DNA of 64,000 nucleotides from Pyrodictiaceae archaeon (GTDB lineage Archaea > Thermoproteota > Thermoprotei_A > Sulfolobales > WAQK01): contig WAQK01000030.1 in NCBI GenBank assembly GCA_015520265.1, positions 134 through 64,133 on the forward strand, written 5' to 3'. Every line of letters begins with the position of its first letter. The stretch's first letter is position 1. The position numbers were made by a program, and so were the translations under genes. This document shows, one piece after another, positions 35,219 through 63,901 of the stretch. The notes beneath the pieces are model-generated. The model did no database searches. It was given only the letters and a program-made list of their open reading frames with translations, and had not been told where the DNA came from.

Positions 35219-35256
35219 CAGAGTAGCAACGTTTCCTAAAATAAATCGAAATAGTT

Positions 35257-35270: not shown

Positions 35271-35277
35271 GTTTTGT

Positions 35278-38373: not shown

Positions 38374-38495
38374 TAATATCCACCTCTGTATCTTGAAAAG
38401 TACAGGGCACTATATTTAAGGTTTTTTCCAACGCTCATTCCATTCCTTTGATAAAGAAATTATTTACCTAAAAAACGGGCGTCATAGTGTATAGG

Positions 38496-38765
38496 TTACC
38501 CGATTAGTTTAACACTAAGTAGAATATTAATACAGGCCCATCGAATCACATTGTTTAACCACCGCCCAACCTCACCAAGTATTCTCTCCGTAGCACTTAT
38601 AAACACCAAAGCCATGCCGGCCAGGGAGAAGCCGAAGGCCAGCAGCATGAGCCAGATGTTCCCCCAGTCCATAGAGACGTAGAGGAGACCGAGGGCAATA
38701 GCCATGAGTACGAAGCCTACCGCAATGTTGCGCCTATACCCTGGAGACAACCAGTCGTTCCCCAC
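38496..38765 (-). CDS. small membrane protein
   Basis: 89-aa ORF with two clear hydrophobic helices (IAVGFVLMAIALGLLYV, IWLMLLAFGFSLAGMALVFI). GC is lower than in the flanking genes. Confidence 0.35.
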   Translation of the reverse strand: MGNDWLSPGYRRNIAVGFVLMAIALGLLYVSMDWGNIWLMLLAFGFSLAGMALVFISATERILGEVGRWLNNVIRWACINILLSVKLIG

Positions 38766-38812
38766 TCCCGATATAAGGCTCGACCAATAATAACCTGTAC
38801 GGAGGCCCAGGT

Positions 38813-39835: not shown

Positions 39836-40148
39836 GGGTTCAGGCTTCATCGTTGCTTCTGAAGGCTTTAACCTTTCCCGGGACTCGCTCATAACTACTA
39901 TACATCCGCCCTGCGCACTCCCGAAGAGCGTGCCTCTCCTGTACATACTGAGGGCTCCATCCAACGGCTCTCATCGCCTAACCCACCGAGTTTGTCCAAG
40001 CACCAAATACAGGAAACCCCATAAAACTTTACAGAGGATGAAAGATGACTAAAAAGTCCGGAAAGTATAGAAATTTCCAACAGTGGTGCAACCTATAATA
40101 GGAGGCCACACCCTATAGTATCGATAAAGTGTTGAGGCACGATCTGCT

Positions 40149-40538
40149 ATGAAACTCCCCGATGAGTGGGTGGAAAAGGCACAAACCTTTCTAAGGGACG
40201 CTCACCGCCACCTCGAAGAGGGCGACTACTGGTTAACATGCTTTGAGGCACAGCAAGCGGCTGAACTCTACTTGAAAGCTCTAATAGTAGCCGAAACCGG
40301 TGTCCACCCCTTCACCCATGATCTTGTTGAGCTCCTGGATACCCTAAACGATATTGGTTACAGTGTTCCCGAGCAACTCTATACGCTATGTGACGCTTTG
40401 ACGCCTCACTACACTCTGGCCAGGTACCCTGGCAGGAAACCGGTAACTTATACTAAGGGGCTGGGTGAGAGGTGCTTGAAGTATGCAGAAGAAGTCGTTA
40501 GGTGGGTTGAGGAAAAGGCTTCTGAAGCGCTTAGCTGA
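40149..40538 (+). CDS. HEPN domain protein
   Basis: 129 aa. The helical pattern FEAQQAAELYLKALI...HDLVELL...LARYPG is the HEPN pattern. It lies directly upstream of, and overlaps, an MNT gene. Confidence 0.8.
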   Translation: MKLPDEWVEKAQTFLRDAHRHLEEGDYWLTCFEAQQAAELYLKALIVAETGVHPFTHDLVELLDTLNDIGYSVPEQLYTLCDALTPHYTLARYPGRKPVTYTKGLGERCLKYAEEVVRWVEEKASEALS

Positions 40539-40989
40539 GAAGAAGAGGAAGAGGAAACAGCTACTAGAGGAGTATGTTAGGATTCTGAGCAACATGTACC
40601 CTAAGTCCCTTATACTTCTCTTCGGCTCACGTTCACGGGGCGAGGAGCTACCCTACAGCGACTATGATCTCGCAGTGGTCCTAGAGGAGATTAACGACTA
40701 TATAGAAGAAACCCATAGGATGCGTCTTCTAAAACCTCGGGGTATAAGTGTAGATCTATTAGCGTTGACGGTCAGGGACCTTGAGGATCCCCTAATCTTC
40801 AAGATGCTTCAAGACGCCATCCCCATCTACAACGGCCTAAACCTAGGCTGGCCTCCAGGGAGGCGTGCTCCTCCGAAAAAAAAAGTAGCCAGTAGGCCAG
40901 TCTACTGTACAATTAGCTTGCATCCACCCCTTCTCTTAGCCTTTCTCAAGAGCTTAGCTGCAAGCCTCCTGCCCGGAGTGCCCATATAG
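40483..40989 (+). CDS. minimal nucleotidyltransferase (MNT) domain protein, partner of the HEPN gene
   Basis: Pol-beta-type NTase motif LLFGSRSRGEELPYSDYDLAVV. The start is uncertain and the ORF overlaps HEPN by 56 nt. The C-terminal 35 aa after an A9 run look non-native and overlap the convergent gene. Confidence 0.7.
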   Translation: MQKKSLGGLRKRLLKRLAEKKRKRKQLLEEYVRILSNMYPKSLILLFGSRSRGEELPYSDYDLAVVLEEINDYIEETHRMRLLKPRGISVDLLALTVRDLEDPLIFKMLQDAIPIYNGLNLGWPPGRRAPPKKKVASRPVYCTISLHPPLLLAFLKSLAASLLPGVPI

Positions 40990-41327
40990 GCTTCCCTGCG
41001 GCCTGAGGCTGGAAGACCTACATGCGCTTTGACAGCAACTATCGATATGCAGGCACCGAGCCTTTTCACCTCCTCCAGTATCCTGCGCAGGTCATCTTCC
41101 AGTTCCTCCGGGGAGACCCCTGGAACCTCCAACACCACTTCCTCGGTTCCCCGCTTGGGATCAAGGCCGTAGAGCACCAGGGCGCTCCACTTGGAGACGA
41201 ACTCCTCCACAAGTCTGGTGAGGGTCCCGGTGACAGGGTTGGGGCTATACTCGCTCCACCCCTTCTCCCTCACCATGTCGCCGAACCGGTCCAGGTCCAT
41301 GATCACGATAGTGCCTTCGACCAGCAT
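40902..41327 (-). CDS. minimal palm-domain protein (GGDEF / GTP cyclohydrolase III / mCpol-like nucleotide cyclase fold)
   Basis: 141 aa. IVIMDLDRFGD corresponds to the DxDxF metal site, GTEEVVLEVPG sits where GGDEF would be, ISIVAVKA is the following beta-strand, and RRLAAKLLRKAKRRGGCKLIV resembles the ADxALYxAKxxGRNxV tail. The SPNP segment recalls archaeal GCH-III. Confidence 0.55.
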   Translation of the reverse strand: MLVEGTIVIMDLDRFGDMVREKGWSEYSPNPVTGTLTRLVEEFVSKWSALVLYGLDPKRGTEEVVLEVPGVSPEELEDDLRRILEEVKRLGACISIVAVKAHVGLPASGRREAYMGTPGRRLAAKLLRKAKRRGGCKLIVQ

Positions 41328-41370
41328 GCTCCCGATAACTTGAATAACGCCCGGCAGGGATAATTCTTCC

Positions 41371-41427
41371 CGCGATGATGACGTGGGCAGCCAGGGAGTA
41401 GTGACAGGCCTAGTCTCACACTGAGCG
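41371..41427 (+). ncRNA. weak candidate C/D-box sRNA
   Basis: C-box-like AUGAUGA at 41375-41381 and D-box CUGA at 41421-41424. The 57-nt span is typical of archaeal C/D sRNAs. The internal D'/C' boxes are degenerate and the terminal stem is poor. Confidence 0.25.
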
Positions 41428-41717
41428 TTTCTCAGCCCATGTTCACGTGGATGCCTTAGGCATTATGCTAGTCTACCCAATCTGTCTTCGGGAAAGTTTC
41501 CATAATGCAATGCCATGAAAAATACTCTTACCATGGACGGCCTAGAGTTCCTTGGATAGAGATGGTGGATTAATAAAGCTCTTAGTTAGGAGTATGGGAG
41601 CCTGTGAAAGGTGCGGTGCTTCAGGAAGACGAGATGGAAACCCTGGTTACCGTTGGGCCAGGGCACCCTGCCTCCTGTAGCACCATGCCTATCTAGACTA
41701 ATTTATGGAGCCAAAAC

Positions 41718-42278
41718 CTAGTACTCCTCCCTTATGCAGCCTAGCTCTTTTAACTTGTCGTAGATCCTGTAGACAGCTTCTTCGACCTCCTCCTCCCTCT
41801 TGGCGCCCGTGATCACCATTTTGCCGCTACTGAAGACGAGAAGCACGACCCTGGGCTGGGACATCCTGTGGATAAGGCCGGGGAACTGCTCGGGTTCATA
41901 CATGTTGTCCTCGAGGAGGAAGGCGGCCTTCTCTAGGTTCACCTCCACGTTGAGATTGGCCGAAGCGACTATGTTCTGTATCTGGATCTTGGGCCTTCCC
42001 GTTATGATTATGTTGTGCCTTCGGAGGGTCCTGATGATCTTCTTGACCGCCTTGATGAGCTCCTCTGTACTCTTGGCACCTGTGACAACCATTTTACCAG
42101 ACTTGAATATCAGCGCGGTGACCTTGGGGTTCTCAAGCCTCATGATGAGGCCGGGGAACTGGTCGGGGTTGTACTCCACGTACTCGACGCTCCTCTCAAT
42201 GGCGTTAAGGTCAAGCGTCTGGTCAAGGGTAACCGTGGCTACAATGTTCTCTATGCGGTAAACGGGTTTAGATGCCAT
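41718..42278 (-). CDS. tbp: TATA-box binding protein
   Basis: 186 aa from the ATG at 42278 ([16 protein letters not shown]...). It has two TBP repeats with FPGLIMRL / FPGLIHRM and [11 protein letters not shown] / [11 protein letters not shown]. The ORF-track extension to 42575 is Gly/Pro/Arg-rich and is rejected. Confidence 0.95.
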
Positions 42279-42306
42279 AATGTTATCTCCTCCGCTCATA
42301 CAAGGC

Positions 42307-42314
42307 TTTATAAA
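42307..42314 (-). promoter_or_regulatory. TATA box TTTATAAA upstream of tbp
   Basis: It lies 29-36 nt upstream of the tbp ATG. That spacing fits a near-leaderless crenarchaeal transcript. Confidence 0.5.
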
Positions 42315-42349
42315 CCTAGTATAAAAGGACTTTGCAGCACGCCTAGACG

Positions 42350-43105
42350 CTAAGCCAGCATGTCGCCGAGGAGGCCCAGCTCGGGGAACTCGTAGAGGCC
42401 AACCTCCTCGTCCACGATTATGGGTCTGGCCCGCTCCACCACCCCCATCTCCTTTACTATCGGGGACAGGTATTTGGAGGGATCCAGGCCCACGGGGTTC
42501 CCCGACTGGTAGGCCCCCGCGGCTGGCAGCACAAGGGCCTCCGCCCCGTTCCTGAGGGGCACATGGAGGAAGCAAGGGAACCTGGCAACGACACCTATAG
42601 AGTCCCTCAGGGCTATGCTGGGATGCTCATGCCCCATGATCACAAGGTCCCCCTCACGCATCTCGACCCCCACGTGGCCGTGTATTATCAGTACGTCGCC
42701 CAGGCGGAGGCTGGGCACTATCTCGACGCCATACGCCTCGGCCACGGCGGCCAGGTAGTTGTCATGGTTCCCCCTAACCACCACTACCTCCTCCACCCTC
42801 TCCTTAAGGAAGGAGAACAGGCCGCCAACCTCTGTCCTCTCCTGCCAGGTGAGCCTGGAGAACACGTGTTTAACGTCGCCCGCGATCACTACTCTACTAG
42901 CCCTGGTCTTCTCCAGCGCTTCTCTCAGCAGCCCGACCGCCTTCTCGTACTGGACTCTGGGGAGGTACACGCCCTTCGACGCCATGTCGTCCTCGAAGCC
43001 CAAGTGGAGATCCGCGAGGACCAGTGTACCCGTACCTCTGAGAAGCACAACCGGGAGCCCGGGCACCAGTTCTACTCCAGGCCTTATCTCCACGACCAGT
43101 CCCAC
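42350..43105 (-). CDS. calcineurin-like metallophosphoesterase (archaeal SbcD/ICC-like, TIGR00024-type)
   Basis: Metallophosphatase motifs [29 protein letters not shown] and MGHEHP, in canonical order. Confidence 0.75.
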
Positions 43106-43160
43106 CAGTGTGTCGGTTAAAAGTTGTTGAGGAGAGTATAGGAGCCCGGAGCGGCGGGTG

Positions 43161-43279
43161 TGGCGGGCCCGCCGGGATTTGAACCCGGGACCTACGGGTT
43201 TCTCCCCGCACCCTCCTGGTTAAGAGCCTCGGCCAGCAGCCAGGCTGTCCGCCGCTCTACCAGGCTGAGCTACGGGCCC
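43161..43279 (-). tRNA. tRNA-Lys (anticodon CUU) with encoded CCA and two putative 21-nt introns
   Basis: The reverse complement gives GGGCCCGUAGCUCAGCCUGGUAGAGCG... ...GGUCCCGGGUUCAAAUCCCGGCGGGCCCGCCA. It has a 7-bp acceptor, a GCUC/GAGC D-stem and a CCGGG/CCCGG T-stem. Removing 43228-43248 and 43200-43220 yields the anticodon arm GCGGG-CUCUUAA-CCCGU. Confidence 0.8.
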
Positions 43280-43307
43280 TTGCCAGGACGTATCGAGATG
43301 GTGAGGG

Positions 43308-43319
43308 CATAAAAATTTT
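43308..43319 (-). promoter_or_regulatory. A/T-rich TATA-like box upstream of the tRNA
   Basis: The minus strand reads aaaatttttatg, 29-40 nt upstream of the tRNA 5' end at 43279. Confidence 0.35.
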
Positions 43320-43384
43320 GCCTCAATCTCCACCGAACGGAAGGCAACGCATGAAAAAACCATTGTGCCTAAAACCCTTTTCGA

Positions 43385-44398
43385 CTAACGTCTCCTAGCT
43401 CTCCTTATCGCCAGCAGAGCTATTCCGAAGACGGCGACGCTGGCGACTACTAGGTGTATGCCTGTGCCCCCGCCCGGTTGCACAAGCTGCCCACCCACAA
43501 CAGGTCCCACCATGGCGAAGGCTCTTGCAGTGTTGTTCTCCAGCTCGTCCAGCGTGTCCCCTGAGGCGAAAACAGTGTAGAGGGTCCTAGACTGGCCTGG
43601 GGCTAGGGTCCCGAGGTACCAGTCGAACACTACTGCGCCATCAAATGCCGCCTCCGCGGTTCCGTCTGCTCGTATATAATACACTGTTGGTGAGGGAAGC
43701 CCCCTGCTATAGTAGTCATCCCAGTCAAGATCCACGCCCGTGGGGTCGGGCATCACTGCAAGACCCATATATGCCGTCCCCGAAGCTATGGTTGTATTGA
43801 CAAAAGCTACCGCCAGGTTCAGCTCGGGGTGCCTAATGCTGTCGAGTCCCCAGTAGTTGGTGAAGGATGACCACACATCCCAGTCGGTAATCTTCTTGAA
43901 CTCGAGATCCGTTATTGTGTCCGCTCCAAGGTTTTCAATCGTTATCTCTTGGACCACGAATTTGGAGTCCAGCGGGAACATTGTTTTAATGGTTATTCCT
44001 AGGACGCCGTCATTGGTTGTCATCCTGGTCACATGTATGACGGTGTTGTTCCAGATGGTCCAGGAGGTGAGTGGCGTTACACCTGTAAGGGTACCCCAGG
44101 GATCATCGTCGGGGGAGAACCCGGCGCTGTTCGCCCCGTAGAATACGGACCACCCGTCACCCCACCATCCCACAGCGAGCGACTCATACCCTGAACCGAT
44201 AGGATACTGGAACCCTACGCTACCTACAGTCGCATCCTGTATCCCTAGGGCTCCATAGTCGTTCACGCCTATGCGGAGATAGGTGCCGGTAAAGTAGTCG
44301 CCATTATAGTAGGCCGAGACGGCAACTGGAAGTGCGAGAAGCATTACTATGCTGAGCAGCATTAAAATTCTTGTAAATGGTTTGTCTAATGTATTCAC
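43385..44398 (-). CDS. secreted hypothetical protein with a C-terminal membrane anchor
   Basis: 337 aa with an N-terminal signal (ILMLLSIVMLLALPVAVSA), a beta-rich Gly/Thr/Tyr/Trp/Asp-rich body, and a C-terminal TM plus basic tail (IHLVVASVAVFGIALLAIRRARRR). Confidence 0.55.
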   Translation of the reverse strand: MNTLDKPFTRILMLLSIVMLLALPVAVSAYYNGDYFTGTYLRIGVNDYGALGIQDATVGSVGFQYPIGSGYESLAVGWWGDGWSVFYGANSAGFSPDDDPWGTLTGVTPLTSWTIWNNTVIHVTRMTTNDGVLGITIKTMFPLDSKFVVQEITIENLGADTITDLEFKKITDWDVWSSFTNYWGLDSIRHPELNLAVAFVNTTIASGTAYMGLAVMPDPTGVDLDWDDYYSRGLPSPTVYYIRADGTAEAAFDGAVVFDWYLGTLAPGQSRTLYTVFASGDTLDELENNTARAFAMVGPVVGGQLVQPGGGTGIHLVVASVAVFGIALLAIRRARRR

Positions 44399-54443: not shown

Positions 54444-54856
54444 TTGGTAGTGACGCTTAAACATAGAGCTTTAAGCATGCTACGACCCGCCAAGCTCAGG
54501 ATCGAGTGGGGCGACAATGACCTAGCATGCTTCGACGCCGAACAAGCAGTCCAGCTTAGATTGAAGACCATACTACTAAAACTCTTCGGCGAGGAGACGA
54601 GGGTCTACGGCGTTCTAGAGCACCTGTCGTTGCTTAGACGAAGGCTTGAGGATGCAGGGTTTAAGAAGGAGGCCGAGGCTCTTTCGGGCTCGTTCGGAGG
54701 AACCGGACATTAATAGAACTTCTCGACGAGTCGTACATTATGGCTAGATACGGTTCGCCTGGACTTTACCGGAGGAGCGATGCGGAGAAAGCTGTAGAAT
54801 TTGCTGAAGAGTTAGTCAAAACCCTAGAAAAACTGGAGAAGGGCGTCCTTGGTTGA
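54444..54856 (+). pseudogene. HEPN domain gene interrupted by a frameshift
   Basis: The N-terminal HEPN half (FDAEQAVQLRLKTILLKLFG...) runs in one frame to the TAA at 54711. The C-terminal half (LVRRNRTLIELLDESYIMARYGSPG...EKGVLG*) continues in the adjacent frame to the TGA at 54854-54856. The frames switch near 54680-54700. Confidence 0.6.
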
Positions 54857-55215
54857 GATACATGGTCGAACGTCTAAGGATGCTCATGGCTTGGAGACGC
54901 CATGCAGACCTCATAGCCACCGCGGTCAGAAGGGTTCTGCCCGGCGCAGAGGTTTACGTGGTTGGCGGGGCCACCGAGGAAAGGCTTACTGCGGTCAGTG
55001 ACATCGATATTCTTGTGGTCACGGAGACTGCGCCTAGAACCGCGATGAAGAGAGCAGAAATCATCGCAAGGAACAGGGAGGAGATGAAGAGACTCGGAAT
55101 TCAGAATTCATATCTCTACGAGATACACCTGGTTGGCCAGGCTGAGGCCCAAGAAATACCTAGAAAAGTCTGGAAGTATGAAAATAACATAGAGGCTGGC
55201 TCCAGTATTCATTAA
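54853..55215 (+). CDS. minimal nucleotidyltransferase (MNT) domain protein
   Basis: NTase motif VYVVGGATEERLTAVSDIDILVV. The TTG start overlaps the stop of the HEPN C-terminal fragment (ggTTGAga). Confidence 0.7.
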   Translation: MRYMVERLRMLMAWRRHADLIATAVRRVLPGAEVYVVGGATEERLTAVSDIDILVVTETAPRTAMKRAEIIARNREEMKRLGIQNSYLYEIHLVGQAEAQEIPRKVWKYENNIEAGSSIH

Positions 55216-56086: not shown

Positions 56087-56359
56087 ATGGGGAGCCTCAA
56101 AATCTACATTTCCAGCGAAACCGAGAAGAAGTTCAGAATGCTGGCAATGAAGCTATACGGCTACGGCAAAGGATCGCTGAGCGTGGCCGCCGAAAAAGCG
56201 CTAAGCGAGTGGATAGCCAAGGTCTCCGAGGCACTGGAGGTTGTGGGTCCCTTGGAAGACCCTGTCGAGGCCATCTATGGTATGCTGAAACACGTGAAGA
56301 AGAGCGGCGTCGAACTCCAACATGAGGCCAGGAGAATAAGGGCCGGAAAAACCAGGTGA
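56087..56359 (+). CDS. vapB: ribbon-helix-helix antitoxin (VapB-like)
   Basis: 90 aa. The N-terminal beta-strand plus two helices (LKIYISSETEKKFRMLAMKLYG...SLSVAAEKALSEWI) are typical of RHH/CopG. It ends 6 nt before a PIN gene. Confidence 0.6.
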   Translation: MGSLKIYISSETEKKFRMLAMKLYGYGKGSLSVAAEKALSEWIAKVSEALEVVGPLEDPVEAIYGMLKHVKKSGVELQHEARRIRAGKTR

Positions 56360-56365
56360 CATGGA

Positions 56366-56773
56366 ATGTTCGTTGACTCCAACATATTCCTGGAGGTCGA
56401 GCTAGCTCAGGAACACGGCGATGCCGCTAAGAGCTTCCTGAAAAAGATCCAGAAGGGCTCACTTAGCGCATATACAAGCGAGTTTCATGTCGACAGCGTA
56501 GTTGTAGTGATGGAGAACTACGGTGCCACCTGGAGAGACATAGCGGTCTTTCTGACCTCGCTCATACAGTACAGGGGTTTGACTATCTACCCGCTAACGG
56601 TGTACGATAAGATCAAGGCCACGGAACTGATGCGGGACTGGAACCTAGACTTCGATGATGCCTTGGCCGCGTACGTTGCCAAGAAGCTGGGCCTCAAAAC
56701 CATAGTCTCCTATGACGCCGATTTCGACAAGATACCGTGGCTCGAAAGACTAACCCCCGAAGACCTCCTCTAA
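56366..56773 (+). CDS. vapC: PIN-domain ribonuclease toxin (VapC)
   Basis: 135 aa. MFVDSNIFLE carries the first acidic residue, and later acidic residues (FDDALA, SYDADF) sit in the canonical PIN arrangement. Confidence 0.8.
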   Translation: MFVDSNIFLEVELAQEHGDAAKSFLKKIQKGSLSAYTSEFHVDSVVVVMENYGATWRDIAVFLTSLIQYRGLTIYPLTVYDKIKATELMRDWNLDFDDALAAYVAKKLGLKTIVSYDADFDKIPWLERLTPEDLL

Positions 56774-56783: not shown

Positions 56784-57464
56784 CTAGTTCTCCTGCAGCT
56801 GCTTCTCCGACCCCCAGAACTGTCTGAACTCTTCCTCCAGGCTCCTCTCCTCGACCTCGCCGTAGGGCTCTTTTTCGCGGAAGACTCTAGCCTCATACCT
56901 GTAGAACTCGACGTCGGGGTCCAGCCAGCAGTGGGGAGGCATGCCCGCCTTGAGACAGGTCTCGGAGAGGAAGGTTTCGGGGTCCCAGCCGTACTCCACG
57001 GGTACCTGGGGGAGGAGGAGGCCCCTATAGATCCCCTTGGCCGCCACCAGGCCGTCGCGCCCTATCCTGACGCTGCGAAGCCTCTCCTCCGGCGTCCTGG
57101 GCATGGGTATGAGGGGTGAGAGCACGCTCACCTCGAAGGTCACATTGTCGAGTTCGGCGCTGCTCATGGGCGGGAACCTCGGGTCGCTCACAGCAGACTC
57201 CACGGCCACCCTGGCGACGGTCTCGGCCAGGGGGTCCCGCGGCTCTATGAAACCTATGCATCCCCGGAGGCTCCTATGCCTGTAGTCCTCGTAGACCTCT
57301 ATGGTGACGAACGCCGCTCCCGGCCTCATAAGCTTCTCAGGAGCGTCGCTGGGTTTAAGCACCTCGCCCTTCTCGAAGTAGTGCTCCACACTCCTCCTGG
57401 CAAGCCTGACCAGGTAGACGCCATCCTCCAGGCTGAGCTCCGACGGGTAGATGGGCTCGCTCAA
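56784..57464 (-). CDS. AMMECR1 domain protein
   Basis: 226 aa with the family-defining LRGCIGF motif and PxxxL(S/T)xxEL context. Confidence 0.85.
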   Translation of the reverse strand: MSEPIYPSELSLEDGVYLVRLARRSVEHYFEKGEVLKPSDAPEKLMRPGAAFVTIEVYEDYRHRSLRGCIGFIEPRDPLAETVARVAVESAVSDPRFPPMSSAELDNVTFEVSVLSPLIPMPRTPEERLRSVRIGRDGLVAAKGIYRGLLLPQVPVEYGWDPETFLSETCLKAGMPPHCWLDPDVEFYRYEARVFREKEPYGEVEERSLEEEFRQFWGSEKQLQEN

Positions 57465-57467
57465 CGG

Positions 57468-57959
57468 TCATCCCTCTTCTTCTAATCTGCTTCGGACACG
57501 TATAAGGGTCTCCTCTATCCCCCTCCAGTGACTGCCCCTCCAGTAGACCTTGCCGCACCTGATGCAACGCCAGAACTCGTCGTAGGCCTCGTAGACCCTC
57601 TGGGGCACCAGTCCCTTTATGTCAGGCTTATACATCCTGGCCAGCTCTCCGTTGCAGGCGGGGCACCTGCTCCTATCAGGGTCTATGCCCAGTCTTATAC
57701 CGGTGCCCCTCGCCACCTCCAGCAGGTACTCCTCTACACTGCTACCATCTATGAATATGCAGCGTCTCCCCCTCCTGCGAGCCCTTCTGCAGAGACCCCT
57801 ATCCTTGGTCAGCAGTATCCTGTCGGGCTCTTTGTCTAGCTGGCGGAGAACCCACCAGTCCTCCCTGTTGCCAGCATATATGGTGTCATAGCCCAGCATC
57901 CTGAGCCAGCGCGCCAGGTCGCCCAGCATGGCGTCGGCTATGAATCTCGGCTCACCCAT
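57468..57959 (-). CDS. Mut7-C / DUF82 PIN-like RNase domain protein with a C-terminal zinc ribbon
   Basis: RFIADAMLGDLARWLRMLGYDT and ILLTKDRGL, plus Cys pairs CPACNGEL ... CIRCGKVYWRGSHW. Confidence 0.8.
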   Translation of the reverse strand: MGEPRFIADAMLGDLARWLRMLGYDTIYAGNREDWWVLRQLDKEPDRILLTKDRGLCRRARRRGRRCIFIDGSSVEEYLLEVARGTGIRLGIDPDRSRCPACNGELARMYKPDIKGLVPQRVYEAYDEFWRCIRCGKVYWRGSHWRGIEETLIRVRSRLEEEG

Positions 57960-58021
57960 AATCTCCCGCCTCTCGTCTGCGCGGGAAAAGGGTTGGTGTG
58001 GGGGCTAATTAGAATGAGTGC

Positions 58022-58834
58022 CTAGGCCTTGAGGCTCAGGTGGAGGGCCACCTCGTCTAGACTCACCAGGCCGGTGGGGTCGCCGTCGCTGGTGACTATG
58101 ACTCCGCGGAGCTTCTTCTCCTTCATCATTCTCGCAGCCTCGCCCAGCGTGGCGTCGCCGGGCAGCGTGGGGGATCCCATTCTCATGGCATCCATCACTA
58201 GGAGCTTGGTGATCCTCTCCTTCATGTACTTGGCTGGCACCAGGTCGTGGAGCTGGAAGATCACGTATGCAAGCTCGTCTACGCTTACAGTGCCTACAAC
58301 CCTGTTAGCCTCGTCGACCACGGGGAGTATAGGGATATTGTTGTCCAGTATCAGCCTCCTGGCGTGGAGCACCTTGTCTCCAGGCCTCAGCCTGGCCGGT
58401 AGGGCGACGGCTATGTGGGTTAGAGGCGTGTCGTCATCCACAACTAGGTCCAGCAGCTGCCACTTGGTGATCAGGCCCACAACATCCTCGCCGTCCACCA
58501 CAGGGAGGCTGCTTATCCCGCGGGCCACCATGAGCTTGGCCGCCTCGTAGACCTCGACGTCGGGACCTATGATCTCTAGGTTTATGGACATGAAGCTGGA
58601 GACGTGGAGCCTGCCGGGCTTGGCTCCGCGGGTCCTCAGCGTGGCTAGCTTCGACAGGATATCCTTCTTGGTCATGATGCCCACCAGCTTCTTGTCCTCG
58701 AAGACCAGGACTCTGTCCATGCCCTTCTTCTCCATAACCCTTACAGCGTGGAGCAGGGTCTCATCCTTGTCCACCGACGCATAGTCCTCCACCATTATCT
58801 TGGACACCATCATGGCTTCACACCTCTTCTTCAT
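58022..58834 (-). CDS. CBS-domain-only protein (4 CBS motifs)
   Basis: 270 aa with four CBS repeats, for example VRVMEKKGMDRVLVFEDKKLVGIMTKKDIL and AKLMVARGISSLPVVDGEDVVGLITKWQLL. No other domain is present. It overlaps the upstream CBS gene by 4 nt. Confidence 0.85.
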   Translation of the reverse strand: MKKRCEAMMVSKIMVEDYASVDKDETLLHAVRVMEKKGMDRVLVFEDKKLVGIMTKKDILSKLATLRTRGAKPGRLHVSSFMSINLEIIGPDVEVYEAAKLMVARGISSLPVVDGEDVVGLITKWQLLDLVVDDDTPLTHIAVALPARLRPGDKVLHARRLILDNNIPILPVVDEANRVVGTVSVDELAYVIFQLHDLVPAKYMKERITKLLVMDAMRMGSPTLPGDATLGEAARMMKEKKLRGVIVTSDGDPTGLVSLDEVALHLSLKA

Positions 58835-59685
58835 AGTTTGGAGAGGGCTTGGAGTATGCTTAGCTTGGAAACTAGGCCTACAAGTCTTCCATCCTGATCG
58901 ACTACTGGGAGGCCCCCTATATTGTTGGCGACCATGGTGGATGCAGCCACGGCGAGGTCCTCGTCGGGCCGCGTCGTTATGGGGTCGGGTGTCATGACGT
59001 CGCCGGCTAGGGGGACGGTGTAGAACCTCACGGCCCCTGTACGGCCCTTCTCCAGCATGCTCACCCTCTTAATGAAGGTAGGCTTCCTACCCGCTAGTAG
59101 CGATGCGTCCATGAAGGCTAGATCGCTCTTCGTTATGATCCCTACGGGCTTGCCTCCCTCCACCACGACCACCTTGCCCACCTCGCTCATCTCGAGGAGC
59201 TCGGCGACGTAGAGGGCGGTGTGCATGCGCCCGACGGTGGGCACCTCCACGTGCATGTAGTCCTCCACCCTGGCCTTTCCAGGGTACCTTTCAGCGTAGG
59301 CCCTGGCCAGGTCGGTCCTGGTGATTATGCCTACCAGCATCCCGTCCTTGTCGACCACGGGGAGCCCGCTGATCCCGTGCCTCAGCATGGTCTCGGCGGC
59401 GGTCTTTATGCTGGCCGTGTCGGGTATCGTGGCTGGGTCGCGGGCCATTATCTGCTCCACAGTTATCGTGTCGAGGGGCCTGCGGGCCATCCTCCTGTCG
59501 GCCAGGATCTTTACGAAGTCGTGCTTCGTGACTATGCCCACGGGTCTGAGGCCCTCCACCACCACTACCCTTCCTATGTTGGACCTTATCATTAGGTTCC
59601 TGACATAGGCCAGGGTGTCTGTGGGCCTGACCACTAGTACAGGGAACGACATGTAGTCTCTGACCCTAGGCGCCATGCTGGTCAC
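58831..59685 (-). CDS. CBS-domain-only protein (4 CBS motifs)
   Basis: 284 aa with four CBS repeats (..MLRHGISGLPVVDKDGMLVGIITRTDL.., ..MVANNIGGLPVVDQDGRLVGLVSKLSIL..). It has 4-nt overlaps at both ends. Confidence 0.85.
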   Translation of the reverse strand: MTSMAPRVRDYMSFPVLVVRPTDTLAYVRNLMIRSNIGRVVVVEGLRPVGIVTKHDFVKILADRRMARRPLDTITVEQIMARDPATIPDTASIKTAAETMLRHGISGLPVVDKDGMLVGIITRTDLARAYAERYPGKARVEDYMHVEVPTVGRMHTALYVAELLEMSEVGKVVVVEGGKPVGIITKSDLAFMDASLLAGRKPTFIKRVSMLEKGRTGAVRFYTVPLAGDVMTPDPITTRPDEDLAVAASTMVANNIGGLPVVDQDGRLVGLVSKLSILQALSKL

Positions 59686-60632
59686 CTCCCAGCCGCGAGG
59701 GCGTATAGAACATCCCTCTCGGTTATAATCCCCTTAAGCCTGTCGTCCTCCACCACCAGGAGGCTGCTAACACCCTTGTCCATCATTTCGGTAGCCGCAT
59801 CGCCCACGTCGGCGTCGGGGCTTATGGTGTAGTAGTCGCTCCTCATCACCTCGTTGACGCTCACCTTCATGGCGTCCTCCATTCTGCCGGAGACGGCGTG
59901 CTTGTAGGCCTCGTGGCTGCCGAAGAACCTGATGATGTCCTTCGCCGTTATCATGCCCTTCACGACGCCCTCACTGCTGACCACTGGGAGCCTCCTGAAG
60001 CTGTACTTGATCATGGTCCTGGCGGCGTCGAGCAGGGTGGCCTCCACGTTTATGGTGACCACGTTCCTGGACATTACCTCACCCACAGTGACGCCCACCT
60101 TCTTCTCCACAAGCCTCCGGACTATGTCATGCTCGGTTATCACGCCGTACAGCCTGCCGTCAGGCTCTACCACCACTACAACGCCCACACCCTCTATCAC
60201 CATCCGCTCCAACACCTTGCTGAGCTTCTCATGGGTCGTCGCCACGACTGGGTGGGGGTCCATGATGCTGGAGACCGGCTCAGAGAGGGCGCCGTATATG
60301 GAGCCCTGATGCCTCTCCACCACTATTTTGTGGAGCTCGCCACCGCCCAGGTACTCCACGACCCTGGACGCGGTGACGAGGCCCTCCAGCATCCTGTCAC
60401 TGGGCTTCGCCACTGGGAGCACCCTCACGTTCTTCTCGTACATGGTGTCTATGGCTTCACCCACCGGGGTGGTCGGCGACACGTAGTAGACGGGCCTGGT
60501 AGCCAGGATCTCCAGCTCCCCCTCACGCCTGTACAGCCTGTTGGAGAAGTTGGGCTTTCCGTCGCTTCTCAGCCACCTAATCCCCTCAGGCCTCCTAACC
60601 ACCGGTCTGAAACCCCTGCTCACGTGTATCAC
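59682..60632 (-). CDS. CBS-domain-only protein (4 CBS motifs) with a 45-aa basic N-terminal extension
   Basis: 316 aa with four CBS repeats (..MYEKNVRVLPVA.., ..MVIEGVGVVVVVEPDGRLYGVITEHDIV.., ..MIKYSFRRLPVVSSEGVVKGMITAKDII.., ..MMDKGVSSLLVVEDDRLKGIITERDVL..). Confidence 0.85.
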   Translation of the reverse strand: MIHVSRGFRPVVRRPEGIRWLRSDGKPNFSNRLYRREGELEILATRPVYYVSPTTPVGEAIDTMYEKNVRVLPVAKPSDRMLEGLVTASRVVEYLGGGELHKIVVERHQGSIYGALSEPVSSIMDPHPVVATTHEKLSKVLERMVIEGVGVVVVVEPDGRLYGVITEHDIVRRLVEKKVGVTVGEVMSRNVVTINVEATLLDAARTMIKYSFRRLPVVSSEGVVKGMITAKDIIRFFGSHEAYKHAVSGRMEDAMKVSVNEVMRSDYYTISPDADVGDAATEMMDKGVSSLLVVEDDRLKGIITERDVLYALAAGR

Positions 60633-60641
60633 CTCAGGAAC

Positions 60642-61424
60642 CTACCTCTCTAGGCCCAGTAGTGCCCGGGCCACGTCCTCCCTGTCAACAATGCCGAGGA
60701 GCTTCTGCCCCTCGGCTATGAGCACTCTGCCTATATCGCGGTCCAGCATGAGCCTAGCGGCCTCGCCCACCGTGGCGGTGGGCGGGAGGGTTATGGGTGA
60801 GGTGTTCATTACCCGCCTCACCTGGGGCCCGCTGCGGGGCGACTCGAGTTCGGCGCGGGTAAGCCTCCTCCTGATCAGGTCTATCTGGGTGACTATGCCT
60901 ACCAGCCTCCCCTTCCTGTCCAGTATGGGGATGCCGGCGTACCTGTGGCGCATCATGTCGGCCCATATCTTGCCTATAGGGTCGTCCAGTGTTGCCGTTT
61001 TGACGTCCCTGGTCATTATCTCCTCGACCCTCCTGGCCTCGGCCCTGGGGTTCCTGCCCAGGTAGGCGCGGATAACGTCCTCCAGGCCCAGGATGCCCAG
61101 GTACCTGCCAGCCTCTGAGACCGGGGCGTACCACTCGTCTATGCTGAGCATCCTGGAGACGGCTGAGACAACATCGTCCTCAGGGGACACTGTTATGACG
61201 GGTGGCACCATTATGTCCTTGACCAGGAGGTTGGACCTGGTCTCGGTGACCCCGAGGACCTCCACCCTCCCCACGGTGCCCTGGATCCTTTCGTCCTCGA
61301 CCACGGGGATGATCCTGACGCCCGTGTCCCTCATCAGGGAGCGGGCACGGGTGGCCAGATCGTCTGGCCTAAGGGTGGGGAAGCGGGTGTTTAGAAATAG
61401 TCTAACCTCCAAACAGGTGTTCAC
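60642..61424 (-). CDS. CBS-domain-only protein (4 CBS motifs)
   Basis: 260 aa with four CBS repeats (..MRDTGVRIIPVVEDERIQGTV.., ..MMRHRYAGIPILDRKGRLVGIVTQIDL.., ..MLDRDIGRVLIAEGQKLLGIVDREDV..). Confidence 0.85.
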   Translation of the reverse strand: MNTCLEVRLFLNTRFPTLRPDDLATRARSLMRDTGVRIIPVVEDERIQGTVGRVEVLGVTETRSNLLVKDIMVPPVITVSPEDDVVSAVSRMLSIDEWYAPVSEAGRYLGILGLEDVIRAYLGRNPRAEARRVEEIMTRDVKTATLDDPIGKIWADMMRHRYAGIPILDRKGRLVGIVTQIDLIRRRLTRAELESPRSGPQVRRVMNTSPITLPPTATVGEAARLMLDRDIGRVLIAEGQKLLGIVDREDVARALLGLER

Positions 61425-61480
61425 CGTGTTACCTATGTTTGTGGGGTCTAAAATTGGTTTACGCCGGGAAACCTCCGGGT

Positions 61481-61921
61481 TCAGAAGCCCCGTGCGGAGC
61501 CCGAGCCTACGTAGAGGAGTTCTATAAGCTCAGGGGCCAGCCTCACTATGTCGTGTTCGGCCAGGATGCCTATGAGCTTGGAGCCCTGCACCACGGGGAG
61601 GTGGCCTATCCCCTTGTCGGCCATTATCTTGGCGGCGTCCTTGAGCGGCATGTCGGGGTCCACCATTATCAACGGGGAGCTCATGACGTCCTTGGCCCTC
61701 ACCTCGGCGGGGTGCCTCTTGACCGCGAGGACCCTGGCTATAAGGTCTTGCTCCGTTATGATGCCTACAGGGTTGCCGTCCTTGTCCACCACGATGACGC
61801 TGCCTATACCGTTGTCCATCATTATCCTCGCCACGTCGGTGACCGGCGTGTCGGGGGTAACCGTGATGGGGTCGGGTGTCATTATGTCCCTGACCCTGAG
61901 TCCTGTAAGCTCCTCGCTCAT
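61481..61921 (-). CDS. CBS-pair (single Bateman module) protein
   Basis: 146 aa with two CBS repeats (RIMMDNGIGSVIVVDKDGNPVGIITEQDLI; KIMADKGIGHLPVVQGSKLIGILAEHDIV). Confidence 0.85.
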   Translation of the reverse strand: MSEELTGLRVRDIMTPDPITVTPDTPVTDVARIMMDNGIGSVIVVDKDGNPVGIITEQDLIARVLAVKRHPAEVRAKDVMSSPLIMVDPDMPLKDAAKIMADKGIGHLPVVQGSKLIGILAEHDIVRLAPELIELLYVGSGSARGF

Positions 61922-61990
61922 AAGTCGCTCATCCCCGGGTTAGTCTCTACGGCTGGGTATTTAAACCTGTGTTTAATAGTTCGTTGAAGC

Positions 61991-63901
61991 CTAGCGCAGC
62001 ACTCTGGAGGGGCCTGGCACCCTGGACTCTATCTCCTGGTCGGGCAGCGCCTCCACCAGCTCCGCGTGCTCGCCAGCCTTGCGGGCCAGTGCTTTCTTGA
62101 TCTTCTCCACCAGCTCCTTGCCCTTCAGGTCGCCGGGTACCAGAACCACGTAGATGCTGGTCCGCTTCTCCACGAGGCTAGGTGGACCCACTATGACCCT
62201 GGCATACTCGTCGAGAAGCTCCACTCCAAGGGCCAGCTCCAGCCTTACCCCGCGGATATAGTTTCTCTTGCCATACACCATGAAGGCGCCCTTGGATAAG
62301 TATTCGCCGGGCGGAGGCGACTTGGAGACCTGCTCGCCCCAAGCCCAGTAGACGTCCAGTGCGGCGACACTGCTCTTCCAGGCCTTGGAGTAGCACGCTG
62401 CAAGAGTCGCTGCCTCCCTGAGGGTCTCCTCGCCCGGCTGCTTGCCGCCACACTTGATCACCACGGCTGGCGCGCCGTGTATCTCGGCATGCATGAAGAC
62501 GTCGCGGGGGCCCAGCTGCTTCTTGACCAGGCTCTCGTTCTGGTCGGCGTTCCGGCCGCCCAGCACCAGGAGGCCCTCGCTGCTTATGAGCCAGTGGTAC
62601 TTCTCGAACCACTCCCTGGGCCTGGAGGCCAGCCTTGTCCTGAGGGCGCGTAGCCTTGCCTTCCTCCTGATGTCCTCCAGCCTCTTCTCGGCGTCCCTGA
62701 GCGCCTCCTCGGCCTTCCTGGCCTTGCCCCTGAGCTCGCCAGCCCTCCTGTACATTTGGAGCAGGTTGTCCTGGGCCGGGAGCCTCACGTCGAGTTCCAC
62801 GTCTACACCATCGATCTTTGCCACCACGATCCCCTGCTTGGGCCTGGCCTCCACGACTCCGGGGCACCGCTCCTTCACCGCCTTCCAGCCCTCCCTCTCC
62901 CTCACCTTCGATACGCATTCCAGCAGCCTCTCGGCTTCCAGAATATTGGCTGCCAGCTTGTTGGCCTTCTCCTCCAGCTCGGCCGCCTTTTCCAGGTACT
63001 CCTCGGCCCTCCTCCTAGCCTCCTCTATGGAGCGGAGGAGCCTGGCCTCCTCAGGCGACGGTGTCTCCCTCGGCCCTCCTGAGGCATGGAAGTACTCGTC
63101 GAGGGCCTCGTTGAAGAGGCCGTAGGTCCTGTGCTCCCCGGCCAGGAACGTCGGCTTGAAGGGCGTAACGGTCTCGTACCTACCGTCCACCACAGTTATG
63201 GTGGGCTCCGGCCTCTCCGTGGAGGCCTTGTAGATCCTTCTAGCCTCCTCCAGAATCCTCTCGGCGGCTTCTGCGTCCAGCTGGCCGGGCTCCATGGACT
63301 TGTCTATGCCGAGCCTGTGGAGGACTTCCTCCGCCAGCTCGGGGGGCCAGCCCGCGCCCCTTATCAGGCCCCTGACCAGGTCCCTCCCCTCCCTCACCCG
63401 CTCCAGGAGCTGCTGAGCCGTGGCCTCCAGAGGGCTGAGCGCCACCCGGGGAGGCGCCACATATTTCTCGCCCCTTCTTATCGCCCTGTCCCTCATCTCC
63501 ACGTAGCGTGTAGCGTAGATTATCCTCCCCTCAGGGTCCAGGAGGGCGGCGACGCCGCGGGGCAGGAGTTCTACAACAAGCCTGTAGCCTCCGGGCTGGA
63601 AGACCAGCTGTACCACCCGCTCGAAGCCCTGCTGTTCTATCTGCTCCAGAACCTTGCCCCTCAGGTATTTGCGGAGAACCATGCCTGCCTGGCCCAGCTT
63701 CTCCCCCCTTATCGTCCTGCTGGTCAGGTGTATCCTCCTACCCGGCTCCACCAGCAGCTCCCTTAGATGGGTCTGAGCCTTAAACTTCACTATGATCATG
63801 TCCCCAACAGTGTAAATGTTGCCAACCCGGCTCCTGCCCAGGAGCCTCAGGGTCTCAGCCTTCCAAGCCGCGACGTCGAGGCTGCTCATACTCCGCTTCA
63901 A
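61991..63901 (-). CDS. NFACT-family protein (archaeal Rqc2/NEMF/FbpA homolog, NFACT-N + coiled coil + NFACT-R/DUF814)
   Basis: 636 aa. The N-terminus SLDVAAWKAETLRLLGRSRVGNIYTV...LLVEPGRRIHLT is NFACT-N-like. It has a central Glu/Arg/Ala-rich coiled coil and a C-terminal DVFMHAEIHGAPAVVIK, which is the DUF814/NFACT-R motif. Confidence 0.85.
   Translation of the reverse strand: MKRSMSSLDVAAWKAETLRLLGRSRVGNIYTVGDMIIVKFKAQTHLRELLVEPGRRIHLTSRTIRGEKLGQAGMVLRKYLRGKVLEQIEQQGFERVVQLVFQPGGYRLVVELLPRGVAALLDPEGRIIYATRYVEMRDRAIRRGEKYVAPPRVALSPLEATAQQLLERVREGRDLVRGLIRGAGWPPELAEEVLHRLGIDKSMEPGQLDAEAAERILEEARRIYKASTERPEPTITVVDGRYETVTPFKPTFLAGEHRTYGLFNEALDEYFHASGGPRETPSPEEARLLRSIEEARRRAEEYLEKAAELEEKANKLAANILEAERLLECVSKVREREGWKAVKERCPGVVEARPKQGIVVAKIDGVDVELDVRLPAQDNLLQMYRRAGELRGKARKAEEALRDAEKRLEDIRRKARLRALRTRLASRPREWFEKYHWLISSEGLLVLGGRNADQNESLVKKQLGPRDVFMHAEIHGAPAVVIKCGGKQPGEETLREAATLAACYSKAWKSSVAALDVYWAWGEQVSKSPPPGEYLSKGAFMVYGKRNYIRGVRLELALGVELLDEYARVIVGPPSLVEKRTSIYVVLVPGDLKGKELVEKIKKALARKAGEHAELVEALPDQEIESRVPGPSRVLR

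Follow-up and report, generated by a model that had tools for sequence, protein, structure and literature searches.

What do five consecutive genes do when CBS is the only domain type that can be recognized in their products? The question is raised by positions 58022-61921 (minus strand) of a 64,000-nucleotide stretch from a Pyrodictiaceae archaeon, hereafter the window, in which an earlier note had described five adjacent CBS-only genes of 146, 260, 316, 284 and 270 aa, in exact agreement with the ORF coordinates. The 18 CBS motifs that it counted were recovered by Pfam as 18 stretches of PF00571, the sole family above threshold (2, 4, 4, 4 and 4 per protein, with E-values between 2e-37 and 4e-57), and the same search found nothing catalytic in the five proteins. 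Its view of them as divergent paralogues also holds, with pairwise protein identities of 25-35% and DNA repeats within the array that are only motif-sized and 60-70% identical, and Pfam and NCBIfam profiles agree with the NFACT/Rqc2-like, Mut7-C and AMMECR1 genes that it placed on the flanks. We consider it very probable that genes 2 to 5 of this Desulfurococcales archaeon form the sriA-sriB-sriC-sriD operon, coding for CBS-tetrad ribosome hibernation factors. The genes of the region are the following:

61991..63901, minus strand: rqcH, 636 aa, coding for the archaeal ribosome rescue protein NFACT/RqcH and lying immediately upstream of the array (NF041120 RqcH_arch at 598 bits, with the cut-off at 400; NFACT_N and NFACT-R_1 in Pfam)
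61481..61921, minus strand: CBS-pair gene 'E', 146 aa (two CBS stretches in Pfam)
60642..61424, minus strand: sriA orthologue, 260 aa, or 256 aa from an alternative TTG start at 61412 (best PDB chain 9ZNF_4)
59682..60632, minus strand: sriB orthologue, a CBS tetrad preceded by a basic N-terminal extension, longest ORF 316 aa, 313 aa from the likely GTG start at 60623 (best PDB chain 9ZNF_5)
58831..59685, minus strand: sriC orthologue, longest ORF 284 aa, 281 aa from the likely ATG start at 59676 (best PDB chain 9ZNI_6)
58022..58834, minus strand: sriD orthologue, longest ORF 270 aa, 263 aa from the likely ATG start at 58813 (best PDB chains 9ZNG_7 and 9ZNI_7)
57468..57959, minus strand: Mut7-C (PIN-fold RNase), 62 nt downstream of sriD (PF01927, E 1e-46)
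56784..57464, minus strand: AMMECR1, 3 nt after Mut7-C (PF01871, E 4e-56; TIGR04335 and TIGR00296)

The operon sriABCD was described in M. acetivorans (MA4648-4651; Nissley et al., Nat Commun 2026, PMC13454478), and synteny of its genes has been reported for 529 archaeal species. Its products plug idle archaeal ribosomes in starvation, SriA and SriB on the large subunit and SriC and SriD on the small one, the two pairs being mutually exclusive (PMC13454478). The array is thus not the undescribed arrangement that the earlier note took it for, since its four tetrads correspond to this published operon. Nor does it lack an effector: judging by the orthologues, the effector is the ribosome, and binding of the two pairs to different subunits speaks against the single five-part hetero-oligomer that had been suggested. 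In contrast, the idea that the products are partners that sense adenosine nucleotides fared well, as AMP and ATP regulate the orthologues of SriC and SriD, published as ARC-P and ARC-A (Zhu et al. 2026, bioRxiv 10.64898/2026.01.19.700304; orthology according to Nissley et al., PMC13454478), with AMP retaining them on the ribosome and ATP releasing them.

The four tetrad proteins match the M. acetivorans SriA, SriB, SriC and SriD chains of PDB 9ZNF, 9ZNG and 9ZNI (identified from the data-availability statement of PMC13454478) one to one, over nearly their full length and in the same gene order. The product of gene 2 aligns with SriA (E 1.7e-34, 123 bits, residues 17-255 against 13-258) and with the next Sri chain at 64 bits at most; that of gene 3 with SriB (E 1.6e-44, 156 bits); that of gene 4 with SriC (E 5.2e-34, 121 bits, residues 8-280 against 3-279); and that of gene 5 with SriD (E 1.8e-30, 110 bits, residues 6-247 against 15-252). 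Identity to the characterized proteins is only about 30-38%, and each protein prefers its own Sri chain over the others by margins of 36 to 100 bits. Chance does not account for the array, since the block is found, colinear, at 23 further loci spread over several phyla; the groups that carry it include Pyrodictiaceae, Methanomicrobiales, Methanobacteriaceae and Methanococcoides. When scored by position across these 23 independent five-gene loci, the diagonal mean was the highest for every protein, also in the 20 loci outside Pyrodictiaceae. The CBS-pair protein and SriA found their best matches at the first and second position, respectively, in 23 of 23 loci, and SriD at its own position in just 13. 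Mut7-C also recurs beside sri genes (in L009-L011, L013, L018-L020, L023, L024, L026 and L088).

The description of the array as CBS-only stands for its domain types but passes over basic non-CBS parts of SriB and SriC, which are their functional elements. SriB carries, outside any CBS domain, a conserved basic N-terminal extension of ~40 residues (net charge +5). Its motif RRPEGIRWLRSDGxPN is conserved and aligns to the methanogen extension, although the crenarchaeal and methanogen versions, RRPEGIRWLRSDG and LLKMPGKLDRGP respectively, do not have the same sequence. In the SriB model, residues 1-40 have pLDDT values below about 55 and the remainder is a confident tetrad; the extension was also predicted to be disordered by Nissley et al. 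(PMC13454478). SriC has, besides its CBS domains, a basic loop insertion at about residues 195-229 (net charge +4), aligned to M. acetivorans positions of about 191-225, in which the model predicts a beta-hairpin (strands 204-210 and 216-222). The top Foldseek hit of this model in the PDB is SriC itself (9ZNI_6); MJ1225, Dri and SriA all reach TM 0.75-0.8, fold searches drawing no sharp line between CBS tetrads. In SriD, a basic loop at residues 60-80 has a net charge of +5, and the loops align to the SriD chain without deletion.

Several signals bear on how these genes are expressed:

61958..61965, minus strand: TATA-like box TTTAAATA, 37 nt ahead of the start codon (ATG) of the CBS-pair gene, kept in the related MAG L008; putative promoter
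61447..61454, minus strand: TATA-like element ATTTTAGA in the gap that separates the CBS-pair gene from sriA, 22 nt ahead of the GTG codon at 61424; putative promoter
60628..60635, minus strand: Shine-Dalgarno motif GAGGTGAT ahead of sriB, with GGTGAT kept in L008
59682..59689, minus strand: Shine-Dalgarno motif GGAGGTGA ahead of sriC, overlapping the sriB stop codon
58821..58826, minus strand: Shine-Dalgarno-like GAGGTG ahead of sriD, with GGGGTG before the equivalent ATG in L008

The spacing reported earlier (gaps of 56 and 9 nt, then two overlaps of 4 nt) is correct for the longest ORFs but not for the starts supported by Shine-Dalgarno motifs and by L008. The GTG codons at 60632 and 59685 fall within the motifs ahead of sriB and sriC, and L008 supports starts at 60623 (GTG), 59676 (ATG) and 58813 (ATG), which are also those of the public gene calls (313, 281 and 263 aa). 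The true starts of sriB, sriC and sriD thus likely lie 9-21 nt further in, leaving still tight spacings of about 56-68, 18, 5 and 17 nt. Given the internal Shine-Dalgarno motifs, the 5-18 nt spacing and the gene order conserved across phyla, the four tetrad genes very likely form one operon. The proposed operon of five genes can be maintained for these four but probably not for the first gene. The block CGGCGTAAACCAATTTTAGACCC around the TATA-like element before sriA is identical in L008, where its flanks differ, and MA4647, the M. acetivorans gene of which 'E' is the positional homologue, is not co-transcribed with sriABCD (PMC13454478). Because of this conserved element and the behavior of MA4647, co-transcription of the CBS-pair gene is improbable here; the gene probably has its own promoter and may form a transcription unit by itself.

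No specific partner of the CBS-pair protein was found among PDB chains. Its family shows a consistent linkage to sri genes, to RqcH or to both, and 49 of 55 positional homologues possess a C-terminal CxxC..CxxC motif that is missing from the window protein, which ends after the CBS pair. A C-terminal Zn ribbon is usual in this family and has been lost in the window member. The same layout, a CBS pair followed by CxxC..CxxC, is found in TA0289 of Thermoplasma acidophilum (PDB 1PVM, 2QH1), reportedly described by Proudfoot and colleagues in 2008 as a fusion of a CBS pair with a Zn-ribbon-like domain. The similarity of the window protein to TA0289 (E 6e-14) is generic for CBS domains and implies no family membership.

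Comparison with characterized systems places the cluster closest to that of M. acetivorans. In both, four CBS-tetrad genes follow one another on one strand in the same order, with every gene best matched by its counterpart. Both also share the SriB extension, the basic loops of SriC (a hairpin) and SriD, and a CBS-pair gene immediately upstream. By contrast, the window cluster belongs to the Thermoproteota (Desulfurococcales), has a different SriB motif and a CBS-pair gene without Zn ribbon, and lies between RqcH and Mut7-C-AMMECR1. ARC-P/ARC-A of Methanolobus is a module of two CBS-tetrad proteins that sits on the small subunit, as SriC/SriD would by orthology. In window SriC, the canonical ribose-binding motif [ST]xx[DN] is present in both CBS1 and CBS2, the two sites where ARC-P holds AMP (bioRxiv 10.64898/2026.01.19.700304). 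ARC-A has an Asn substitution in CBS1, whereas window SriD has TKKD there and the non-canonical SVDE in CBS3, so its nucleotide occupancy may differ. Dri of Pyrobaculum calidifontis (dual ribosomal subunit inhibitor; PDB 9E6Q, 9E7F), also from the Thermoproteota, is a single protein of 655 aa in which two tetrads are fused; the N-lobe is related to SriA and the C-lobe (residues 332-634) is the second-best match of window SriC (111 bits), but in the window the lobes are separate genes with SriB and SriD as additional partners.

The earlier comparison with MJ1225 and AMPK-gamma was apt at the level of the fold. MJ1225 of Methanocaldococcus jannaschii (PDB 3KH5, 3LFZ), which has been described as an archaeal gamma-AMPK homologue, matches window SriB almost as closely as M. 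acetivorans SriB does (154 against 156 bits; TM 0.9, rmsd 2.0 Å, 31% identity). Having 280 aa and aligning from its residue 8, it is devoid of the ribosome-reaching extension and would belong to the SriB-short category of PMC13454478. This fold (TM about 0.7 to AMPK-gamma), the canonical ribose-binding motifs in 9 of the 18 CBS domains, and the close structural match SSO3205 (3DDJ), crystallized with AMP, would all suit a soluble hetero-oligomeric adenosyl-ligand sensor that regulates a non-ribosomal target. Nevertheless, the neighborhood holds no kinase or other effector partner, every tetrad has a specific, solved, ribosome-bound orthologue, the conserved non-CBS elements are precisely those that contact the ribosome, and the M. 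acetivorans pairs bind apart (PMC13454478), making such a sensor very unlikely. Unlikely too is that the CBS proteins, instead of being hibernation factors themselves, are nucleotide-sensing regulators of the flanking RqcH-Mut7-C-AMMECR1 pathway (RNase or ribosome rescue). The block lies exactly between these genes, a known archaeal neighborhood (PMC4075521), and the linkage recurs, rearranged, in L010, L011, L018-L024, L026, L050, L088, L089 and L092. However, methanogens keep the full cluster with RqcH, Mut7-C and AMMECR1 absent within 10 kb, and the characterized orthologues work directly on ribosomes. A role in this pathway is compatible with hibernation, as an extra layer and not a replacement.

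We give hardly any credence to the tetrads being transcription regulators like HhpR, the CBS-tetrad factor of Pyrococcus yayanosii. HhpR and Sri share the same archaeal CBS-tetrad sequence core (PMC12934967) and all five proteins match the NCBIfam HhpR family (NF053603), but at 48-67 bits against a cut-off of 520, far below the full-length matches to the Sri chains. Just as implausible are functionally unrelated paralogues left by old tandem duplications. One domain type throughout and low mutual identity would be expected of such relics, yet the order is conserved, with position-specific orthologues across Thermoproteota, Halobacteriota and Methanobacteriota, and the genes are tightly spaced with Shine-Dalgarno motifs at the internal ones; this reading is already contradicted by the synteny data.

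Orthology, conserved gene order, ribosome-binding elements and operon-type signals were all observed in this analysis. By homology to the M. acetivorans proteins, the window Sri proteins would bind ribosomes under nucleotide control and have the same physiological role, with energy shortage as the trigger. The basic, disordered SriB extension would pass through the peptidyl-transferase center into the exit tunnel. SriD and SriC would act on other ribosomes, SriD blocking the small-subunit A site and mRNA channel and SriC occupying the P/E sites, its basic beta-hairpin gripping the 16S 3' end. Idle ribosomes would thereby be silenced and their rRNA shielded from nucleases, and adenine nucleotides in the CBS pockets would probably set occupancy, AMP retaining the factors and ATP releasing them.

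The array thus represents an already known kind of system, four of its five genes being covered by sriABCD. RqcH(NFACT)-Mut7-C-AMMECR1 is a conserved archaeal neighborhood (Burroughs and Aravind 2014, PMC4075521), and the window has all three genes on one strand in the described association, but with RqcH and Mut7-C parted by 3.9 kb of CBS genes, which have no occurrences in that paper. The location of the sri block inside this neighborhood is possibly unreported, as are the Zn-ribbon first-gene family and its linkage to sri genes and RqcH.

Our sequence and synteny comparisons identify four of the five genes in the CBS array of this Pyrodictiaceae archaeon as sriA, sriB, sriC and sriD, since their best-matching PDB chains are the ribosome-bound Sri proteins of Methanosarcina acetivorans. 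The ORF listing bore out the five consecutive ORFs that the earlier note had reported on the minus strand.

Genes of the CBS array in transcription order, with assignments from sequence and synteny and best PDB chains (all chain matches near full-length)
61481-61921, minus strand, gene 1, CBS pair (E), ORF of 146 aa
60642-61424, minus strand, gene 2, assigned to sriA, ORF of 260 aa; 9ZNF_4 (SriA), E 1.7e-34, 123 bits
59682-60632, minus strand, gene 3, assigned to sriB, longest ORF of 316 aa; 9ZNF_5 (SriB), E 1.6e-44, 156 bits
58831-59685, minus strand, gene 4, assigned to sriC, longest ORF of 284 aa; 9ZNI_6 (SriC), E 5.2e-34, 121 bits
58022-58834, minus strand, gene 5, assigned to sriD, longest ORF of 270 aa; 9ZNG_7 / 9ZNI_7 (SriD), E 1.8e-30, 110 bits

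These chains belong to structures of the M. acetivorans 70S ribosome with SriA and SriB (9ZNF), with SriD (9ZNG) and with SriC and SriD (9ZNI) (PMC13454478). In phmmer comparisons with the PDB chains, the Sri chain proper to each tetrad beat the best other Sri chain by at least 36 bits. The four tetrad genes are adjacent on one strand in the order sriA-sriB-sriC-sriD, and a purely position-based score matrix was diagonal over 23 five-gene loci. Fold searches confirm the CBS tetrad but split the subfamilies poorly, so that the subfamily call rests on the phmmer scores and the position matrix, the criterion of the Sri paper being the best-scoring Sri model and subtree. At 260–316 aa and four CBS each, the tetrad proteins fall inside the Sri length range of 100–500 aa. 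Pfam searches found 2, 4, 4, 4 and 4 CBS stretches in genes 1 to 5 (18 in total), with no other domain passing the threshold in these proteins and hence no catalytic domain, as expected from the CBS-only architecture first proposed. NCBIfam matches were only to generic CBS models such as IMPDH, PrdR, HhpR, CbpB and the DS11 antiphage protein, each far below cut-off, and were all discarded; a transcription factor of the HhpR type was rejected, its scores lying far under threshold. Pairwise protein identity is just 25–35%, and DNA repeats within the array are motif-sized stretches of 60–70% identity. The genes are thus old paralogues and not recent duplicates, in agreement with the earlier note.

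Other systems built on CBS tetrads fit the array less well. Dri is a single polypeptide of >500 aa carrying two tetrads, whereas the lobes in the window are separate genes encoding 260–316 aa with stop codons between them, and the array is therefore not Dri. Nor is it HibA/AHA, in which a CBS tetrad is fused to an HPF/RaiA domain, since Pfam found no HPF domain in the window proteins. No further CBS, HPF-fusion or Dri-like gene occurs anywhere else in the 64-kb window. MJ1225 has long been cited as an archaeal AMPK-gamma homologue, and it has the closest fold to the window SriB tetrad (TM 0.9, 31% identity); AMPK gamma chains share the tetrad fold (Foldseek TM 0.70–0.72). The likeness to MJ1225 and AMPK gamma drawn in the earlier note is therefore right at the structural level, but no kinase partner adjoins the array: the 20 kb gene table holds no kinase (alpha) or scaffold (beta) gene beside it, and a RIO2-type kinase gene lies unlinked, about 8 kb away. 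Against PDB chains, the window SriB scored 154 bits with MJ1225 (3KH5/3LFZ) and 156 bits with M. acetivorans SriB; MJ1225, which has no N-terminal extension, may on this comparison be a ‘SriB-short’ protein.

With gene 3 as query, well-conserved orthologues (45–60% identity) were found throughout the Desulfurococcales, among them those of Pyrolobus, Pyrodictium, Hyperthermus and Stetteria. The window matches contigs of the Desulfurococcales-type MAG GCA_015521955.1 and of several metagenome assemblies, all of which share its gene order. We scanned one genome per species with the SriB orthologue alignment, assigning neighbouring ORFs by best match. Synteny in related archaea was borne out: the colinear five-gene block recurs in Pyrodictiaceae, Methanocellaceae, Methanococcoides, Methanobacteriaceae, Methanoregula, Methanoculleus, Methanospirillum and Methanolinea. 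Reduced versions retain genes 2-3-4 (Acidilobaceae, Aeropyrum, Sulfolobales, Caldisphaera), genes 1-3 (Archaeoglobi, Aenigmatarchaeota), genes 3-5 (Methanobrevibacter, Pyrolobus) or just gene 3, with Mut7-C and AMMECR1 after it (Thermogladius, Thermosphaera). The cultured Pyrolobus fumarii (CP002838, 1696305-1713264; locus L007) has two genes only, sriB and then a tetrad scoring best as sriD, with no RqcH, Mut7-C or AMMECR1 nearby; cluster make-up thus varies even inside the Pyrodictiaceae. The published survey counts sri genes in 1,636 species of 15 phyla, with the syntenic A-D order in 529 species (PMC13454478).

The window proteins also carry features of the Sri family outside the CBS core. 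An SriB extension is defined by >15 residues aligned, with the hmmalign procedure, to positions 27-56 of M. acetivorans SriB (PMC13454478). P27 of the window SriB pairs with P47 of that protein, and a further 23–26 residues upstream, basic and with a net charge of +5, line up with the methanogen extension, so that the long N-terminal extension is present. Its AlphaFold model (mean pLDDT 86) is a confident tetrad apart from residues 1-40, whose low confidence agrees with the disorder also predicted for the M. acetivorans extension (PMC13454478). In the alignment of SriB orthologues, the N-terminal motif RRPEGIRWLRSDGxPN, which lies outside the CBS domains, is invariant. Thermoproteota extensions (window 60510-60632; alignment A1 of SriB) share the invariant RRPEGIRWLRSDGxPNFS, unlike the methanogen motif K/Q-x-D-x-LLKMPGKLDRGPVEFKS, and this difference in sequence suggests lineage-specific contacts in the peptidyl-transferase centre and exit tunnel. 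In SriC, the loop equivalent to M. acetivorans 191-225 has alignment gaps of just 2 and 4–5 residues and a net charge of +4, and is modelled as a beta-hairpin (strands 204-210 and 216-222); the top Foldseek PDB match of the model is SriC itself, then Dri. Two SriD loops engage the decoding centre according to the Sri criterion (PMC13454478); both corresponding regions align without deletion in the window SriD, the first being basic (charge +5). Canonical ribose-binding [ST]xx[DN] motifs are found in CBS3 of SriA, CBS2-4 of SriB, CBS1-3 of SriC and CBS1 of SriD.

The mode of action of the orthologues has recently been described. In M. acetivorans, sriABCD form one operon and each protein blocks translation in vitro; a mutant lacking the four genes has a longer lag after an extended stationary phase and a depleted small subunit (Nissley et al., Nat Commun 2026, PMC13454478). 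SriA fills the A and P sites of the large subunit and the N-terminal extension of SriB passes through the peptidyl-transferase centre into the exit tunnel, SriD obstructs the A site and mRNA channel of the small subunit, and SriC occupies the P/E sites, its beta-hairpin touching uS11 and sequestering the 16S 3' end; the SriA/SriB and SriC/SriD pairs are mutually exclusive (PMC13454478). ARC-P and ARC-A, orthologues of SriC and SriD, hold AMP in their CBS pockets, and ATP leads to their release from the ribosome (Zhu et al., bioRxiv 10.64898/2026.01.19.700304). The window SriA-D would most likely work like these orthologues, through paired ribosome binding, translation inhibition and AMP/ATP control. 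The earlier note had taken the array for an undescribed arrangement, a view overtaken by the 2026 publications, which make it the sri ribosome-hibernation operon. Its reading is right in part, as to an operon, partner proteins and a probable sensing of adenine nucleotides; the effector that it missed is the ribosome. A single complex of all five subunits was rejected because the A/B and C/D pairs of the characterised system bind to different ribosomal subunits and are mutually exclusive.

The tight coupling of the genes is retained, although in a different form from that first described. The GTG at 60632, the longest-ORF start of sriB, falls within GAGGTGAT, and the GTG at 59685, that of sriC, within GGAGGTGA, which also holds the upstream stop codon. 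The internal ATG of sriD at 58813 is preceded by GAGGTG. In the related MAG L008 (~90% protein identity), the sriC ORF begins at the equivalent of 59676 and the sriD ORF at that of 58813, the extension “MKKRCEA” not being conserved; public gene calls agree with the starts backed by L008. Neither the 316-aa longest ORF nor the homologues from Hyperthermus and Stetteria gave a match in exact-sequence look-ups, because the called starts differ. With starts revised from Shine-Dalgarno placement, L008 and the public calls, the real spacings between genes 1 to 5 are likely ~56–68, 18, 5 and 17 nt. The two “ATGA-type overlaps” of the earlier note, which assumed longest-ORF starts, are probably not real; coupling is nonetheless still tight, since each of the three internal genes (3, 4 and 5) has a Shine-Dalgarno motif and the spacings are short. 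The organism being archaeal, TATA and Shine-Dalgarno motifs were identified from the sequence itself rather than with a sigma-70 promoter/terminator scanner.

Putative promoter elements of the array, both conserved in L008
Upstream of gene 1, minus strand, TATA-like box TTTAAATA
Between genes 1 and 2, minus strand, 22 nt upstream of the GTG at 61424, TATA-like element ATTTTAGA

Gene 1 has no specific structural counterpart in the PDB, and a PDB search with one of its Zn-ribbon homologues returned generic CBS matches only and no ribosome-bound structure. Its genomic position is nevertheless recurrent. In a sample of 81 SriB-seeded loci, which is biased to loci with sriB, 55 have a CBS-pair gene immediately upstream of sriA or sriB; these 55 come from Thermoproteota, Halobacteriota, Methanobacteriota, Archaeoglobi and Aenigmatarchaeota. 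In 49 of the 55 positional homologues the CBS pair is followed by a C-terminal CxxC..CxxC Zn ribbon, an architecture that we take to be TA0289-like, and 18 of the 55 show an overlap of exactly 4 nt with the following sri gene. In the window and in five other Desulfurococcales copies the ribbon has been lost, and a gap of 56–192 nt precedes the next gene. Seven context look-ups seeded with gene 1 placed all four Zn-ribbon homologues beside RqcH and/or sri genes (L088, with Mut7-C and AMMECR1 divergent from E-A-B-C-D; L089 and L092, with RqcH-E-SriD-amidohydrolase-AMMECR1; L093, with RqcH-E), compared with none of three ribbon-less generic CBS pairs. Family loci were tallied in the window (61481-61921) and in the compared loci L026-L086, L088, L089, L092 and L093. 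Proteins as short or as weak-scoring as its members were excluded from the Sri, ARC and AHA surveys; the criteria of the Sri survey (E <1e-35; PMC13454478) and of the AHA survey (length >200 aa) would leave the family out. MA4647, the M. acetivorans counterpart of gene 1, is mentioned in the Sri paper just as not co-transcribed (PMC13454478).

Domain searches confirmed the flanking genes proposed earlier, namely archaeal RqcH (598 bits, with the cut-off at 400), Mut7-C and AMMECR1, which in the window lie on one strand, interrupted by the five CBS genes. The RqcH(NFACT)-Mut7-C-AMMECR1 neighbourhood is conserved in archaea; Burroughs and Aravind, who described it in 2014, do not mention CBS genes (PMC4075521), and neither the Sri paper (PMC13454478) nor the ARC paper (bioRxiv 10.64898/2026.01.19.700304) mentions these neighbours. 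The CBS block lies inside this neighbourhood in the window (56784-63901) and in L010, and a sri block lies inside or beside it in L010, L011, L018-L024, L026, L050, L088, L089 and L092. In other lineages the linkage is kept but rearranged, either divergent or with sriD as the only sri gene; it is missing from the methanogen loci. These ties of gene 1 and of RqcH, Mut7-C and AMMECR1 are associations only, from which we infer a functional meaning. Speculatively, and with the balance of our judgement somewhat against it, the CBS-pair family, normally with its Zn ribbon, could be a fifth regulatory or adaptor part of archaeal idle-ribosome management that ties ribosome rescue by RqcH to hibernation by Sri, with RqcH-E-sriABCD-Mut7-C-AMMECR1 forming one ‘ribosome care’ supercluster.

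Other segments of the window also drew attention. Convergent to AMMECR1, two ORFs (56087-56773, plus strand), the first of 90 aa and the second a PIN-domain ORF of 135 aa, look like a VapBC-type toxin-antitoxin pair. At 54444-55215 (plus strand), an NTP_transf_2 nucleotidyltransferase gene forms a pair with a HEPN gene, here in an 89-aa form; among the near-identical contigs L001-L005 the HEPN gene is called at 137 aa in some and 89 aa in others and is uncalled in L001, and the two genes may make up a HEPN-MNT toxin-antitoxin module that is decaying or variable. The stretch 32001-44000, with a G+C content of 0.52–0.57 versus 0.59–0.64 in the remaining window, may be of foreign origin or under different constraints.

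What appeared to be a block of sensor domains is thus clarified as a sri ribosome-hibernation operon in an uncultured hyperthermophilic Desulfurococcales lineage, which places the sri system in Thermoproteota beside Dri and allows loci labelled just “CBS domain-containing protein” to receive a proper annotation. The sri system itself is known; the fifth-gene family and the embedding among RqcH, Mut7-C and AMMECR1 may be new. According to the Sri authors, an “additional protein” may regulate ribosome binding, a role for which the product of the CBS-pair/Zn-ribbon gene is a candidate, and the occurrence of sri genes within or beside RqcH-Mut7-C-AMMECR1 in several lineages hints at a coordination of hibernation, stalled-subunit rescue and RNase activity.
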